Positions 57,366 through 64,000 of a DNA stretch of 64,000 bases are shown one piece after another. A program made the translations under genes and the position numbers. The notes below the pieces were generated by a model. That model was given only the letters and a program-made list of their open reading frames with translations. It made no database searches and had not been told where the DNA came from. The DNA is taken from the sequence record PP359570, one strand, 5' to 3'. How positions within the stretch are numbered: position 1 is the first letter of the stretch; each line of letters begins with the position of its first letter. This DNA comes from Escherichia phage ALITA.

Positions 57366-57736
57366 GGTATCGCCCTTTCTTTGTTGTGCGCCCTGGTTGG
57401 CGCGGTAGAAAGATGATAGCCGTTTCCTTCATATATAGCAAGCAAAAAAGAAATGAAAAAAAGATTAAAAAATGGTTGACGTTCCTCACCTGGTAGCGTA
57501 GTATTCATCTTGTCGAGGGGGGCAAGACACAACGACAATAAACAATAGGCGGGTGCAATGCAAGACGGGCAAAGGTGAGGATCTCCACAATCCACCGTCA
57601 CAATAACATTACTTATAAAAGGTTGATAACGATGATCAAGAAAGAAAATAGCTTGACGGTTGGAACGATTAACGCTATCATTCTTGCCGTTCCATTTTGG
57701 ATTGTAGTTGCGGTTATTATTTTCTAAAAAAATATT

Positions 57737-57764
57737 CTTGACAACGTTTTTTAATCTGATAAGA
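57737..57764 (+). promoter_or_regulatory. Sigma70-like promoter
   Basis: TTGACA-16-TAAGAT, followed by leader hairpin 57775-57794. Confidence 0.6.
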
Positions 57765-57817
57765 TGTATCACATAGGGCGGCAATAGTGCCGCTCATAAC
57801 AGAAGAGAGAAATAATC

Positions 57818-58090
57818 ATGGCATCATATAGCGCATCAATGATTGTAAAGGGTATCACTGGTAAACCTATGCGCGGTGGCGGATCTTTCGCTAACATCAA
57901 TATTGATGGACGTTTATCCCTGGACGCAGCGATCACAGTGGCACGGGAAACATTTAAAAAAGAATGTAATTTCAATAAACAAGATTATCTCGGTTTTGCT
58001 ATTGAAAAAACCGCGCGCTTTGTGGATTATAAAAGCCCGAAAATGATCGACACTACACTAAAAGCGCAAGATGTAGCGTTTTTGCTTTAA
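57818..58090 (+). CDS. Hypothetical early protein
   Basis: 90 aa; promoter-hairpin-SD unit upstream. Confidence 0.55.
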   Translation: MASYSASMIVKGITGKPMRGGGSFANINIDGRLSLDAAITVARETFKKECNFNKQDYLGFAIEKTARFVDYKSPKMIDTTLKAQDVAFLL

Positions 58091-58093
58091 GAC

Positions 58094-58122
58094 TTGACAC
58101 TGAAAAATAATTTGATAATATA
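58094..58122 (+). promoter_or_regulatory. Sigma70-like promoter
   Basis: TTGACA-17-TAATAT, leader hairpin GGCGGGGAAATGGTTTCCCGCC at 58133-58154. Confidence 0.6.
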
Positions 58123-58176
58123 TACCACATAAGGCGGGGAAATGGTTTCCCGCCAAATCAAAGAAAGGGTAATGCA

Positions 58177-58539
58177 ATGAGCAAGCAAATCAATACTATC
58201 ATGTTTAATCTGGTATCTTTCCGCGATGACGTGAAAAACCTTTCGCGTGATGCAGTGGATGCACGGATCGAAAGCTATCGCACACAGATCGCAACGTTAC
58301 CGCTGAAACGTGATCAACATGCCGCTAATATGATGCTTGATGCTATGATTAAAAAGATGATTCAATGTGATCTTACCCTGGCTTATGAATATGCTGGCGA
58401 TCTCTTTGTAACATATAGCAAGCCCGTTCCAGGTATGAGCACCACGGAAGAATTGCATGCCTTAAATCTGCGACAAGATGCATGGGATAACATGCGCCGT
58501 GTTATGGTATGGGTAGAAAGCGGTAAAATTTACGAATAA
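58177..58539 (+). CDS. Hypothetical early protein
   Basis: 120-aa ORF. Confidence 0.55.
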   Translation: MSKQINTIMFNLVSFRDDVKNLSRDAVDARIESYRTQIATLPLKRDQHAANMMLDAMIKKMIQCDLTLAYEYAGDLFVTYSKPVPGMSTTEELHALNLRQDAWDNMRRVMVWVESGKIYE

Positions 58540-58545
58540 AAACGG

Positions 58546-58573
58546 TTGACATTGCACTAAAACCTGATAAGCT
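58546..58573 (+). promoter_or_regulatory. Sigma70-like promoter
   Basis: TTGACA-16-TAAGCT, hairpin AGCGGGAATAGTTCCCGCT 58581-58599. Confidence 0.55.
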
Positions 58574-58617
58574 ATCTTAAAGCGGGAATAGTTCCCGCTT
58601 ACATAGGATAAAACTTT

Positions 58618-58764
58618 ATGAAACAATATGTAATGAGTATTCACACCAAAAACGGCGCTACTGTTACGACTCCGGCACGGTTTGCACTTGTAAACCGTTG
58701 CAAGAGACTAAAACGAGAGCTAAAAAACAACCGTGCAACGGGCTTTAAACGCTGGGGAGGATAA
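58618..58764 (+). CDS. Small basic protein
   Basis: 48 aa, below ORF-track cutoff. Confidence 0.35.
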   Translation: MKQYVMSIHTKNGATVTTPARFALVNRCKRLKRELKNNRATGFKRWGG

Positions 58765-58766
58765 TC

Positions 58767-59027
58767 TTGTTTTTTCTAAAAGTTTTTGATAATGTGATCG
58801 CTTTTGAACATGCTACAACGTTCGACCTGGCGAGATACGCTATCAGGTTTAAAGATAATGTTTATCCCCGTGCTGGCGGCGGTTACACTATTTTTAATCA
58901 TCGCAACGCGCAACTAACTGATATAACTAATCCAGATCCTGGAGTGTATCGGATAGGCTGGCTACCGTCAAAAGATGCGGCAAGCATGTTTAAGGTATGT
59001 AAACTACTAACAGAAGAGGCGAACTAA
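58767..59027 (+). CDS. Hypothetical protein (TTG start)
   Basis: 86 aa; SD GGGGAGG 9 nt before TTG; coupled to upstream small ORF. Confidence 0.4.
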   Translation: MFFLKVFDNVIAFEHATTFDLARYAIRFKDNVYPRAGGGYTIFNHRNAQLTDITNPDPGVYRIGWLPSKDAASMFKVCKLLTEEAN

Positions 59028-59028
59028 C

Positions 59029-59583
59029 ATGGGGCGTGAATATGTGATCCAGTCCTGGGTAAAGCATGATGCTAATGATCCGCGCATAATACCAGATGAC
59101 ATGATCGATCACATGGTAGGGTATAGCGGGGAGCAGATAGGAAATCGAGCGGCAAAGAGCAACGGCAACACCAGGACGCGATCCGTTCGCCCTGGATGGC
59201 TGGCAAATGGTAACGCTGACATTGCAAGCGCCGCAGATCCAAGCGATGACGCTAAAAATAATCCCTTATACAGTATTGATCCGGCTTTTAAGGTGTTGGA
59301 AGAGTATCCCGCTAAATTAGCCGCACTAGATAAAGCATACGAAGAAAAACGGGTGGCATGGACTGTATACAACACCGCTAAAATGGTGCTAGATGCAAAA
59401 TTGATTAAAGCCCAGGAGAAGATCAATAAACTTGTTACCATAGCGCAAGAGGAAGACCAGGACGACCAGGAGGAAGAGGAAGAAATCATGCCTAACCTGG
59501 AAGAGGAAGAGATCCAGCCATACACGCCGACAGAAGAGGAAAAAATACAAGCCTTAAAAAATTATAAAAATTGTATTGTGTAA
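59029..59583 (+). CDS. Hypothetical protein with acidic D/E-rich C-terminal tail
   Basis: 184 aa; EEDQDDQEEEEEIMPNLEEEE. Confidence 0.5.
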   Translation: MGREYVIQSWVKHDANDPRIIPDDMIDHMVGYSGEQIGNRAAKSNGNTRTRSVRPGWLANGNADIASAADPSDDAKNNPLYSIDPAFKVLEEYPAKLAALDKAYEEKRVAWTVYNTAKMVLDAKLIKAQEKINKLVTIAQEEDQDDQEEEEEIMPNLEEEEIQPYTPTEEEKIQALKNYKNCIV

Positions 59584-59586
59584 GGC

Positions 59587-59615
59587 TTGACATATGCAAA
59601 CAAGCCCCGTAATAT
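59587..59615 (+). promoter_or_regulatory. Sigma70-like promoter
   Basis: TTGACA-17-TAATAT. Confidence 0.5.
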
Positions 59616-59663
59616 GTACCACATAGAGCGGGGCAACCCCCTCAAAGGTGAAATAAAAATCAC

Positions 59664-59691
59664 TTGACAACTGAAATCAGTAAGCTATAAT
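59664..59691 (+). promoter_or_regulatory. Sigma70 consensus-like promoter
   Basis: TTGACA-16-TATAAT. Confidence 0.65.
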
Positions 59692-59728
59692 GCTTATATA
59701 AATTAAAGCGTTACTAAGGAATAAAATC

Positions 59729-60094
59729 ATGGCTAAAAATATCAATGTTTCTGCTTATGCTACCCTGGCTAACACTGCTAAAATTGAACTATCCAGCATT
59801 GAAGCGGTACATATTAGCGCCCGTCGCTGGTTTCAAAAGTCTTATGGTAATACTTATTTCTCTTTGATGGTTGACGTTGAGATCGGCGGTAAACTGATTG
59901 AAGTCGTTAACGTTCCGTTTCAATATGGTTATGGTGATCATTTTGATACCGTTGCCCTAGAAGAGTTTAGCAAGGTTATCAACCTGGAAGGTAAAGACTT
60001 TTCAAATTATGCTTACCTTTCCCGTTTTTGCCGTGATAATGGGATCGCTGTATACAGTCATGCAAGCGATGTTAAACGTAAAAAAGATTTATAA
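59729..60094 (+). CDS. Hypothetical early protein
   Basis: 121 aa, SD AAGGA. Confidence 0.55.
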   Translation: MAKNINVSAYATLANTAKIELSSIEAVHISARRWFQKSYGNTYFSLMVDVEIGGKLIEVVNVPFQYGYGDHFDTVALEEFSKVINLEGKDFSNYAYLSRFCRDNGIAVYSHASDVKRKKDL

Positions 60095-60100
60095 AAAGTA

Positions 60101-60128
60101 TTGACAGCACGAATAAAAAGCGTAAAAT
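60101..60128 (+). promoter_or_regulatory. Sigma70-like promoter
   Basis: TTGACA-16-TAAAAT, hairpin GGGGGAACGGTTTCCCC 60144-60160. Confidence 0.6.
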
Positions 60129-60183
60129 GTTTTATATCAGGACGGGGGAACGGTTTCCCCTCCTAACAAAGAGAGAAATAAAA

Positions 60184-60366
60184 ATGGCTAAATGCACTAT
60201 CTGTAAGAAAGAAATAGTATTAGTTCCAAGCGCCCGTGAACGTGCCGCTAAGTTTGGTGGCAAACCGTCAGACTATACAAAAATGTTCACTACCCATGCA
60301 GCTTGCCAGGTAGCGAAACGTTCACAAGAAAGCGTAGAATTAATGCGTAAACTTTCCAAAAAATAA
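60184..60366 (+). CDS. Small Cys-containing protein
   Basis: Start at ATG after SD (MAKCTICKK...), 60 aa. Confidence 0.5.
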   Translation: MAKCTICKKEIVLVPSARERAAKFGGKPSDYTKMFTTHAACQVAKRSQESVELMRKLSKK

Positions 60367-60368
60367 TA

Positions 60369-60396
60369 TTGACAAAGTATTTTATTACTATATAAT
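60369..60396 (+). promoter_or_regulatory. Sigma70 consensus-like promoter
   Basis: TTGACA-16-TATAAT, hairpin GCGGGAATAGTTCCCGC 60411-60427. Confidence 0.65.
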
Positions 60397-60451
60397 GGTT
60401 TACATCGAGAGCGGGAATAGTTCCCGCCTCACTGAAAAAGAGATTAACATC

Positions 60452-60691
60452 ATGGCTAAATCTAAAATGTACAACGGTCACAAAAACAAAACTCATTGGA
60501 ATGTAAGCCTTTGGATCAACAACGATGAAGGTTTTTATAATCTTGCGCGTGAATTTATCGCAGCTAACACCAATAAGAATGACGCAGCGCGGGATATGAT
60601 GTTATTTCTTGAAAGTATGGATCAAGATAAAACGCCAGACGGTTACAAGTTCAGTAAAACTGCAATCCGTGCCGCTATGGTTGGAATGTAA
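60452..60691 (+). CDS. Hypothetical early protein
   Basis: 79-aa ORF. Confidence 0.55.
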   Translation: MAKSKMYNGHKNKTHWNVSLWINNDEGFYNLAREFIAANTNKNDAARDMMLFLESMDQDKTPDGYKFSKTAIRAAMVGM

Positions 60692-60786
60692 AGGAGACAT
60701 AAAAATGAAACATCGTTCGACCTATCTGACAAAACGTTTTAGCTTAGATCATAAATTAGGCTATTACGGAAGAAATAGAAAATAAT

Positions 60787-60814
60787 TTGACAACGTTTAA
60801 AATTAGTGTAAGAT
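60787..60814 (+). promoter_or_regulatory. Sigma70-like promoter
   Basis: TTGACA-16-TAAGAT, hairpin GGGCGGGAAATGGTTTCCCGCC 60826-60846. Confidence 0.6.
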
Positions 60815-60868
60815 GTATCACATAGGGCGGGAAATGGTTTCCCGCCAAATCAAAGAAAGGTTATCATT

Positions 60869-61096
60869 ATGGCTATCGTTATTGTTCGCGTATCCGGTAC
60901 GGTTGGGATCTCCCAGGTAGTAGCAGTTATCACCGAGAAGAAAGGAGATGATCTTCACTCCTCCTTGAATAGCTGGGCGGTCGCTAACTTTGGGCAATGG
61001 TCGAGCGTTGAGTACATCGAATCCTACCAGGTGCCAACGATTAGCCTAACCGATCTAAATGTTGATCGCTTGTTGTGCCTGGATCAATTAAACTAA
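60869..61096 (+). CDS. Hypothetical early protein
   Basis: 75-aa ORF. Confidence 0.5.
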   Translation: MAIVIVRVSGTVGISQVVAVITEKKGDDLHSSLNSWAVANFGQWSSVEYIESYQVPTISLTDLNVDRLLCLDQLN

Positions 61097-61104
61097 AAAT
61101 AATA

Positions 61105-61132
61105 TTGACAAGATAACTAAAATCAGTAAAAT
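61105..61132 (+). promoter_or_regulatory. Sigma70-like promoter
   Basis: TTGACA-16-TAAAAT, hairpin GGGCGGCAATAGTGCCGCTC 61143-61162. Confidence 0.6.
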
Positions 61133-61183
61133 GTAATGCATAGGGCGGCAATAGTGCCGCTCCTAGTGAGAGAGATTATCAAG

Positions 61184-61399
61184 ATGGCTAATATCCGCAC
61201 ACTGTTAAAAAATGCAAGTCAAGTTTTATTTTCAGATGACGAGTATTTCAACAAAGACATTACAGGCGTGAAAAATTTAAAAGACGTGAAGGATGTTATC
61301 GGTATCCGTGGATCTTTACGTAAAGGTGACATATACGGTAACAAGGTGCAATATAAACTGTCAAAAGATTATGATTTTACTTTGACATTTATTTCATAA
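61184..61399 (+). CDS. Hypothetical early protein
   Basis: Start at ATG after SD (MANIRT...), 71 aa. Confidence 0.5.
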   Translation: MANIRTLLKNASQVLFSDDEYFNKDITGVKNLKDVKDVIGIRGSLRKGDIYGNKVQYKLSKDYDFTLTFIS

Positions 61400-61405
61400 A
61401 ACCGC

Positions 61406-61433
61406 TTGCAATACTGCAAAAATAAAGTAAACT
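61406..61433 (+). promoter_or_regulatory. Sigma70-like promoter
   Basis: TTGCAA-16-TAAACT, hairpin GGCGGTGGAATAGCCCACCGCC 61446-61467. Confidence 0.45.
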
Positions 61434-61489
61434 GTATTCATCAAGGCGGTGGAATAGCCCACCGCCTAACAAAGAGAAGAGGAAACATC

Positions 61490-61660
61490 ATGATCACTTT
61501 CGCTACCCGTGAAGCCGCTCGCAACGTTGCACGTAAAGTTAACGCCGCCAACCTGGGCGCTACGCTTAAAGCCCCGGTAAAAGATGAATCAGGTAAATGG
61601 ATCTTCCCTGGTCTGCGTCACGCTGATAAGCTGGGAACGTTAACGCTAAAAAATAAATAA
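61490..61660 (+). CDS. Small basic protein
   Basis: 56 aa. Confidence 0.45.
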   Translation: MITFATREAARNVARKVNAANLGATLKAPVKDESGKWIFPGLRHADKLGTLTLKNK

Positions 61661-61667
61661 AATCCGC

Positions 61668-61696
61668 TTGACAGTAGCATCATTTATAAGTAAAGT
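61668..61696 (+). promoter_or_regulatory. Sigma70-like promoter
   Basis: TTGACA-17-TAAAGT, hairpin GGCGGGAAATGGTTTCCCGCC 61706-61726. Confidence 0.5.
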
Positions 61697-61746
61697 AACA
61701 ACAACGGCGGGAAATGGTTTCCCGCCATCAATAAAGAGATAAGATC

Positions 61747-62106
61747 ATGAAATCAGTAAAAGCAATTAAAACTTACATTGTGTCGGCTATTTCTTTTGAT
61801 GGTACTACAACCGAAAAAGAAAAGATCACCGAACTGATGCGCCGTTTTAACTCTGAATACTGGTATCCCGATAATCAAAAACGTTACAATTATAACGTGA
61901 TCAAGGCAATAGCCTCATGGTTACAAGGTTTACCGTCAGAAATCAATATTGCTTTTGATTATAACGAGATCGATCACTTGTTAATTGAATGGAAGTACAT
62001 AAAAGAAACAAGCAAAGAAACAACCGTTACCCGTGAGCGGGAAAATTATTGGTTATATATTGCAAGCATGATCGTAATCCTGGCAAAACAGCATAACGCG
62101 GCGTAA
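61747..62106 (+). CDS. Hypothetical early protein
   Basis: 119-aa ORF. Confidence 0.55.
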   Translation: MKSVKAIKTYIVSAISFDGTTTEKEKITELMRRFNSEYWYPDNQKRYNYNVIKAIASWLQGLPSEINIAFDYNEIDHLLIEWKYIKETSKETTVTRERENYWLYIASMIVILAKQHNAA

Positions 62107-62120
62107 TTAAGAGGAAAAAA

Positions 62121-62258
62121 CATGAACGCATCACAGCAGATCGAAAAATTCAACCGCAGCAAGGCGCGTAAAGATTGGAACGAAGAGATCACCAAAAAAG
62201 GCGACAAGCGGAACAAAACAAAAAGAGATCGCAGCACAAAAAGATACTGGAACGAATA
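62121..62258 (+). CDS. Small highly basic protein
   Basis: 45 aa, K/R-rich, SD AAGAGGA; followed by terminator. Confidence 0.35.
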
Positions 62259-62260
62259 AC

Positions 62261-62289
62261 AAAAAGGGCGCAATAAGCGCCCTTTTAGC
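62261..62289 (+). terminator. Intrinsic terminator
   Basis: AAAAAGGGCGC-AATA-AGCGCCCTTTTAGC. Confidence 0.8.
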
Positions 62290-62376
62290 TTATATAGAGG
62301 CTTGTTACCCATAGGCAATGGTAACGCCAGGGCAAGCCTATAAATCAACGTTAGACGGCTTTACAGGAGCTTTAAA

Positions 62377-62559
62377 ATGAGATTAGAAGAAATAAGCAAG
62401 GCACTAGCCCAGGGGCAAAGGTTAAACGCCCGTTATCGTGATCAATATGGCTTCATAACTAGCGGCGTGATCCTGGGGATTGAAGGCAATAAGATTTTTA
62501 TTGACACGTTGAAAAACGTTGTATATAGTGACAATATAATCTCAATAAAACATATATGA
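62377..62559 (+). CDS. Hypothetical small protein
   Basis: 60 aa, SD CAGGAGC. Confidence 0.4.
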   Translation: MRLEEISKALAQGQRLNARYRDQYGFITSGVILGIEGNKIFIDTLKNVVYSDNIISIKHI

Positions 62560-62567
62560 GGCAAGAA

Positions 62568-62969
62568 ATGAAAAAATTATTGATCGCTGGTTTAATCTCT
62601 TTTGGCATGGTTGGAACATCTAGCGCGGCGATATCCTCCACAGTAGCAGAATTAAGCGCCGTTGATGCAATGGAAAACGTCATGCTTATTAATAATGCGA
62701 TCCCCGATGAAATCATGGAGGATTCACACATGATCGCTTATGGTGCTGTTACACAACTAACGGCAAAAATAGATAAATCTATTGTTAATGGCTTAAATGA
62801 AGATGTACCATGTGAAATTATTACCAGTGTGCTCACTACTCAAAATTTTACGCCGTGGTTAAAAAGTATTCAAAAAGTACACAGTACAGCCGCAGATCGT
62901 AGCAATGAAAAACTAGTGTCAGCACTTGCAACGTATACCCTAGCAAAATGCACTGAAATAAAAGATTGA
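62568..62969 (+). CDS. Secreted/periplasmic small protein
   Basis: Start at MKKLL after SD GAGG; signal peptide LIAGLISFGMVGTSSAAIS. Confidence 0.5.
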   Translation: MKKLLIAGLISFGMVGTSSAAISSTVAELSAVDAMENVMLINNAIPDEIMEDSHMIAYGAVTQLTAKIDKSIVNGLNEDVPCEIITSVLTTQNFTPWLKSIQKVHSTAADRSNEKLVSALATYTLAKCTEIKD

Positions 62970-62994
62970 CAGCATAGAAAGCACGTTATAAGAT
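62966..62994 (+). promoter_or_regulatory. Sigma70-like promoter
   Basis: TTGACA-17-TAAGAT. Confidence 0.5.
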
Positions 62995-63016
62995 ACACAC
63001 AACAAAGGAGAACTAC

Positions 63017-63319
63017 ATGAACGGCATAGCTAAAACGTTTTTTCTTTTTTCTGGTGTAAATGATCCATCAATAAAAGTCGATAGTGTAAAAGAAAACAAT
63101 ACTATCACCGCTAAATTGTTTCAAGATGAAACAAATAACGTGCTAATCATTAATCTTAAAGAAATAACTAAAGGTTATTATACTATTGCTTACCATGCGA
63201 TCTATCATGCTGGTACTAGCGAGGAAGTGCAAACAAGCAACAACGAAAGCGCGGCGCTACCTGGTGATCTGGTGCTGGGTGTTATTAGTTTAATTGTCAA
63301 TGATTTTTTTAAGGAGTAA
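63017..63319 (+). CDS. Hypothetical protein
   Basis: 100 aa, SD AAAGGAG. Confidence 0.5.
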   Translation: MNGIAKTFFLFSGVNDPSIKVDSVKENNTITAKLFQDETNNVLIINLKEITKGYYTIAYHAIYHAGTSEEVQTSNNESAALPGDLVLGVISLIVNDFFKE

Positions 63320-63577
63320 AACCATGCCCTATTTACATTTATTTTTCGGGATCTTATTGTCAGGATCTTTTTTCTTCTGTATGCTTGTTTCTATTGTAAA
63401 CCACGTTTTAAGACATTAAGGAAACAGCATGAAAATTATTCCCGTACAATATAGCGTAATAAATCCAGCATATGAGGAAGGAAGGAAAACAAGCATGGCT
63501 TTATGTTGTATTGTTACTATAGCCATGTTGTTATATATTGTGTTTTAATAGGTTTTATAGTTGTACGCTTTAAAGGC

Positions 63578-63605
63578 TTGACAATTTTTTGTTATGCTTT
63601 AAAAT
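63578..63605 (+). promoter_or_regulatory. Sigma70-like promoter
   Basis: TTGACA-16-TAAAAT. Confidence 0.5.
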
Positions 63606-63648
63606 ATATCTTGAAAACGGCAAAGGCCGCAAACAAAAGGGTAAAATT

Positions 63649-63972
63649 ATGAAATCTGTGATCGGTGTTTATTTGGATAACTCTGATTTTTTCTATCATC
63701 GCGCGCGTTTACTTGATGCTATTGAAATGATAGAATCAGGCTTTAAAGAGTATCGCCTTGCACATGATGACCTGGAAGCATTACAGGGCAATAGTGTTTT
63801 TACATTGCAAGCGAAAGCACTATGCAAAAGCCGGATCGAGATTGCAAGTAAAAAGATAGAGCGCGGCATGTCCTGGTTACGCACCGCAGAAATCAACATG
63901 GGGCAATGGTACGGCAAAAACTTAGAAAATAAACATGCTTTTGTAAATGTAGAAAATATTGAAGATTATTGA
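63649..63972 (+). CDS. Hypothetical protein
   Basis: Start at internal ATG (MKSVIGVY...) downstream of promoter. Confidence 0.45.
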   Translation: MKSVIGVYLDNSDFFYHRARLLDAIEMIESGFKEYRLAHDDLEALQGNSVFTLQAKALCKSRIEIASKKIERGMSWLRTAEINMGQWYGKNLENKHAFVNVENIEDY

Positions 63973-64000
63973 TTGACAGCACACCTGATAAGGAGTATAT

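Follow-up and report, generated by a model that had tools for sequence, protein, structure and literature searches.

The small-gene array at the end of the window, by which we mean the whole 64,000-nucleotide stretch analysed here from the coliphage ALITA (PP359570), a phi92-like myovirus (Justusliebigvirus), is genuine, and most of its genes have their own strong host-type promoter. We show here that the units of this array are real, repeated, directional and conserved, that constraint is strongest on the stems of their leader hairpins and on their -35 boxes, and that they are sites of cassette deletion, insertion, swapping and reordering among relatives. The array is probably a hyperplastic small-gene region read by the host RNA polymerase, made of conserved, recombining units in which the hairpin serves mainly as a 5'-end stabiliser or insulator. 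Positions 57737-64000 are the counterpart of phi92 gp226-gp241. The array begins upstream of 57737, with a further unit at 57476, and continues beyond 64000, where VEcB, the nearest relative, has four extra units, of which three have TTGACA promoters (Table 1).

Table 1. Units, genes and other features of the array (57476-64000)
Feature	Coordinates	Strand	Details
Upstream unit	57476-57527	+	TTGACG-17-TAGTAT promoter-like site, weak G-rich hairpin
Small transmembrane ORF	57575/57632-57727	+	after upstream unit
Unit 1	57738-58090	+	promoter 57738-57765, TTGACA-16-TAAGAT, TG-extended
Unit 1 hairpin	57776-57795	+	dG -14.4, z -4.0
Unit 1 ORF	57818-58090	+	90 aa, phi92 gp226, phrog_8099
Unit 2	58094-58539	+	promoter 58094-58121; hairpin 58133-58154
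Unit 2 ORF	58177-58539	+	120 aa, gp227
Unit 3	58546-59583	+	promoter 58546-58573, TTGACA-16-TAAGCT; hairpin 58580-58600
Unit 3 ORFs	58618-58764; 58767-59027	+	48 aa; 86 aa, TTG start
Unit 3 third ORF	59029-59583	+	184 aa, acidic C-terminus
Unit 4	59587-59663	+	promoter 59587-59615, hairpin 59626-59643, leader; no ORF; adjoins next promoter
Unit 5	59664-60094	+	perfect consensus promoter 59664-59691; no hairpin
Unit 5 ORF	59729-60094	+	121 aa, gp231
Unit 6	60101-60366	+	promoter 60101-60128; hairpin 60139-60164
Unit 6 ORF	60184-60366	+	60 aa, Cys-containing
Unit 7	60369-60785	+	perfect consensus promoter 60369-60396; hairpin 60407-60430
Unit 7 ORF	60452-60691	+	79 aa, DUF7249
Unit 7 second ORF	60705-60785	+	26 aa, variable, strong SD
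Unit 8	60787-61096	+	promoter 60787-60814; hairpin 60826-60846 (GGCGGGAAATGGTTTCCCGCC)
Unit 8 ORF	60869-61096	+	75 aa, gp233
Unit 9	61105-61399	+	promoter 61105-61132; hairpin 61143-61162
Unit 9 ORF	61184-61399	+	71 aa, gp234
Unit 10	61406-61660	+	weaker promoter 61406-61433, TTGCAA-16-TAAACT
Unit 10 hairpin	61444-61467	+	distinct stem GGCGGTGG/CCACCGCC; dG -18.7, z -4.9
Unit 10 ORF	61490-61660	+	56 aa, gp235
Unit 11	61668-62259	+	promoter 61668-61696; hairpin 61706-61726
Unit 11 ORF	61747-62106	+	119 aa, gp236
Unit 11 second ORF	62122-62259	+	45 aa, T7 gp1.1 family
Terminator-type hairpin	62262-62286	.	AAAAGGGCGC-AATAA-GCGCCCTTTT, A/T-flanked, bidirectional type
Distal part, different layout	62377-63548	+	no leader hairpins
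ORF	62377-62559	+	no sigma-70 promoter of its own; contains promoter 62501-62529
Signal-peptide ORF	62568-62969	+	behind promoter 62501-62529
ORF	63017-63319	+	behind promoter 62966-62994
Two small hydrophobic ORFs	63324-63419; 63429-63548	+	after 63017-63319, same promoter 62966-62994
Unit 14	63578-63972	+	promoter 63578-63605; weak 4-bp hairpin only
Unit 14 ORF	63649-63972	+	107 aa, gp241
Unit 15 (cut by window end)	63973-64000	+	TTGACA-17-TATAT(T); in VEcB runs on into hairpin GCGGGGAAATGGTTTCCCCGC, then gp242 ORF

With a promoter defined as TTGACA-N16-18-TATAAT matching at 10 or more of 12 positions, the plus strand of 57737-64000 holds 12 sites, against a mean of 1.6 (sd 1.2, maximum 7) in 300 dinucleotide shuffles, and the minus strand of the same region holds none. 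Weaker sites at 58546 (TTGACA/TAAGCT) and 61406 (TTGCAA/TAAACT), together with that at 63973, cut by the window end, give 15 promoter-like sites, so that the initial annotation was correct in counting at least 13 units with near-consensus sigma-70 promoters; including these weaker matches, 14 units are complete and one is interrupted by the window end. Its layout of one ORF per promoter is less exact, since the promoter and hairpin at 59587 are followed by no ORF, an arrangement also present in inny and Paula, and six ORFs (58767, 59029, 62122, 62377, 63324 and 63429) lack a dedicated promoter. No promoter lies between the three ORFs of unit 3. The regulatory unit measures about 85-90 nt, occupies nearly the entire stop-to-start gap between successive ORFs and consists, from 5' to 3', of an AT-rich stretch, the near-consensus -35 and -10 boxes, the hairpin, an A-rich leader with a weak Shine-Dalgarno (SD) sequence and the ATG.

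A GC-rich leader hairpin with a stem of 7-12 bp is found in ten units and in the unit cut by the window end. Its distance from the -10 box is 9-12 nt in most units and 5-6 nt in two, and its predicted onset lies at about +3 to +5 in the RNA (nt 3-5 of the predicted 5'UTRs). Hairpins of -12 kcal/mol or below stand behind 10 of the 14 promoters, compared with 2.6% in the background (P ~1e-13). All sequence 3' of the hairpin is unpaired in the predicted 5'UTRs, SD and AUG included; between hairpin and start codon lie 20-25 unpaired, A-rich nucleotides, and more than 10 nt separate the end of the hairpin from the SD. The SDs of hairpin units average -4.4 kcal/mol, those in the rest of the window -7.3 (p=0.005). 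The proposed repetition of promoter, leader hairpin, SD and small ORF is thus statistically solid as a layout, but it does not extend to the units at 59664, 62501, 62966 and 63578, in which the hairpin is absent or weak and which presumably function without it.

Across seven relatives and nine units, differences from the window amount to 0.6% in stems and 0.9% in -35 boxes, 2.8% in coding sequence, 5.2% in loops, 7.3% in -10 boxes, 7.9% between -10 box and stem and 9.4% in spacers. Loops, spacers and flanks differ at 4-9% overall, and stems are about 10-fold more conserved than the loops and flanking non-coding positions of the same units. Gene conversion between units could account for part of this stem conservation, instead of selection at the RNA level. 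Between units, stem sequences differ and yet pairing is kept. Because the hairpins were picked by sense-strand folding, the covariation and sense/antisense tests lean towards structure: in a loop-anchored alignment of this preselected set 93% of cells are paired, compared with 74% after shuffling (0/500), of 29 hairpins, 20 are more stable as sense than as antisense RNA (p=0.03), and ten hairpins have G·U pairs on the sense strand only. Seven of nine stem pairs are altered on both sides, and slid registers are only 40-61% paired.

Could the inverted repeat instead be the site of a phage or host protein, either a DNA operator (+3 to +25) that switches off all of these promoters jointly or an RNA tag through which a regulator or nuclease controls the early messages as a set? 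Operators typically sit just after the start site, as this element would, and the extreme conservation of the stems, the GGGAA-YRG-TTCCC core common to many units and the weak SDs, which could indicate regulated translation, are in line with such a site. However, stems differ among units and genera while pairing is kept, and the loops are variable (TGG, TAG, CGG, ACA, CAA or 4-7 nt). The hairpin is also separated from the SD by the distance given above, and no candidate binding protein was found. Since the G·U pairs are confined to the sense strand, they argue in addition against a double-stranded operator. We therefore consider a protein site unlikely.

Among nine close relatives, indels comprise whole cassettes, and their junctions fall within a start codon, a -10 box or a hairpin. 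In L007, 57783-58138 is absent, and the hybrid hairpin at the junction still folds (-14 kcal/mol). Five phages lack 60131-60399, with two junctions, before and after the -10 box; the whole unit 6 cassette is absent from phi92, Paula, L007, ESCO8 and VivaForever. A 275-bp extra cassette is inserted in relatives at the common ATGGCTA start of unit 5. In BME3, 57526-57775 is missing with a junction at the hairpin start, so the promoter was swapped, the 57476 promoter being fused directly to the unit 1 hairpin. More distant relatives keep the design with genes reordered or replaced: L009 has its cassettes in changed order, L010 has 1 of 17 ORFs in common, and gp227 (unit 2) is the sole array ORF kept in both loci. 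The array aligns in 3-6 pieces with most of the top 25 relatives (one in the closest), whereas an equal-length control region aligns in one piece with 100% cover in all 25; the higher divergence is not restricted to the array, as divergence from inny starts upstream of it, at 55.7 kb. The specific evidence for recombination between units is confined to the five hybrid-unit junctions. Indel junctions would be expected to avoid ORFs anyway.

Such recombination is also what would be seen if the hairpin were functionless and the units were copies of one duplicated segment, spread with their cassettes and homogenised by recombination. The units are clearly paralogous, having in common CACATAGGGCGG and ATGGCTAA, the latter often forming the start codon context, and the regulatory unit of unit 8, the top match of our covariance model, is present at 491 sites across 146 phage records. 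Yet the roughly 10-fold conservation of stems over their surroundings and the foldable stem retained at hybrid junctions are at odds with functionless copies, as is the presence of unrelated stems at the same position, both behind promoters elsewhere in the genome (33869-, 101615-, 107350- and 138851+ in window/VEcB coordinates) and in relatives with only 71-79% gp227 identity. This makes the possibility very improbable.

The nearest known system comes from the hyperplastic regions of T4-like phages, which carry PeSL (promoter-early stem-loop) cassettes (Arbiol et al. 2010, PMC2839356; Comeau et al. 2014, PMC4122927). Both systems have a consensus sigma-70 promoter, an AT-rich upstream stretch containing the stop codon of the previous gene, and an adjacent stem-loop of a G-tract and a C-tract followed by the SD and start codon of a small, functionally uncharacterised gene; the conserved sequence is about 100 nt long and densely repeated where the genome varies most, and indel junctions between near-identical phages fall inside the elements. 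In contrast to PeSLs, the present units belong to Stephanstirmvirinae and relatives. [quoted passage not shown] PeSL stem-loops were originally proposed to be terminators, and in a reporter test that of PeSL211/210 reduced lacZ read-through to an extent similar to rrnB T1 (PMC2839356). By the same logic the present hairpins would terminate or attenuate transcription of the upstream gene and limit the build-up of read-through along tandem promoters. The array has no alternative terminator between units before 62262-62286, its sole canonical terminator-type hairpin, and the GenBank annotation of Paula calls the hairpins terminators, although it places them on the strand opposite all genes. However, no U-tract follows the leader hairpins on either strand, save one weak case at 61730-61702 (minus strand); they keep a fixed distance from the -10 box of the next promoter rather than following a stop codon; and the canonical terminators of the same genome form a clearly distinct, A/T-flanked class. 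Termination is thus an improbable main role.

Most likely, then, the hairpin is a 5'-end mRNA stabiliser or insulator. Unmodified host RNA polymerase would read this phi92-like hyperplastic region, placing a hairpin at the 5' end of every primary transcript, where it would shield the message from 5'-end-dependent RNase E/RppH decay and hold the ribosome-binding leader unpaired regardless of the ORF that follows; in read-through transcripts it may also form a barrier between cistrons. RNase E can also enter directly, independently of the 5' end, which counts against a stabilising role. T7 phi10 transcripts begin with a stem-loop, and the rule attributed to Emory, to Bouvet and Belasco and to Arnold reportedly allows at most about 2-4 unpaired 5' nucleotides. 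E. coli mRNAs are stabilised by stem-loops at their 5' terminus (Emory 1992, Bouvet & Belasco 1992 and Arnold 1998, cited in PMC3997798), and the ompA and papA leaders are such elements (Emory, Bouvet, Arnold, Bricker and Belasco, likewise cited there). As in ompA, papA and phi10, a stable hairpin lies a few nucleotides from the predicted 5' end and precedes an unstructured ribosome-binding leader. Those are single, experimentally proven cases, whereas the role suggested here derives from geometry and conservation, for a family repeated at a dozen or more promoters. Similar sequence of about 90 nt recurs every 300-450 bp, and homologous or microhomology recombination from one unit to another would therefore carry an ORF along with a functional promoter and leader, as has been proposed for PeSL cassettes.

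The encoded proteins, of 45-184 aa, agree with the sizes initially given, and the one secreted product is borne out by the SignalP annotation of phi92 gp239 (62568-62969). The statement that none has a recognisable domain is slightly off, since Pfam matches the 79-aa ORF to DUF7249 (E 3e-14) and the 45-aa ORF to Phage_1_1 (PF08200; E 6.5e-12). For the suggested host-takeover or anti-defence function we found no direct support: PHROG families cover 18 of 20 array ORFs, 17 without known function and one labelled 'membrane protein'; an NCBIfam search of the array ORFs gave no match; and two good AlphaFold models gave no informative structural neighbour (gp227, pLDDT 92, has generic helical bundles only). 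Codon usage is indeed more host-like, with an RSCU correlation of 0.57 to an E. coli codon table (0.01-0.21 in other gene blocks) and a GC3 of 0.39 (0.26-0.30 elsewhere). Given this and the near-consensus sigma-70 promoters, the genes can reasonably be regarded as early.

Comparable gene clusters exist in other phages. In the SPO1 module, about 24-26 small early genes cluster in the terminal redundancy and are served by many strong sigma-A promoters, and several of these genes have demonstrated host shut-off functions; to our knowledge, neither a family of conserved leader hairpins nor a role at cassette junctions has been described for it. The present array resembles this module, the T5 pre-early and the T7 early regions in that small genes are densely clustered on one strand close to a genome end and (nearly) every gene has a strong host-type promoter, SPO1 being the Bacillus phage whose host-takeover module is mentioned in PMC6873191 and PMC10531801. 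In archaeal viruses, anti-defence genes were discovered via regulatory sequences (PMC11065993), a common early promoter/leader motif marking a set of small accessory genes; domain of life and motif differ, and the parallel is a mere analogy for exploiting the present array. Three main points go beyond the initial annotation: the promoter-hairpin units form a conserved repeat family, they lie, like PeSLs, at the junctions where relatives gain, lose or reorder cassettes, and the SDs of the hairpin units are unusually weak.

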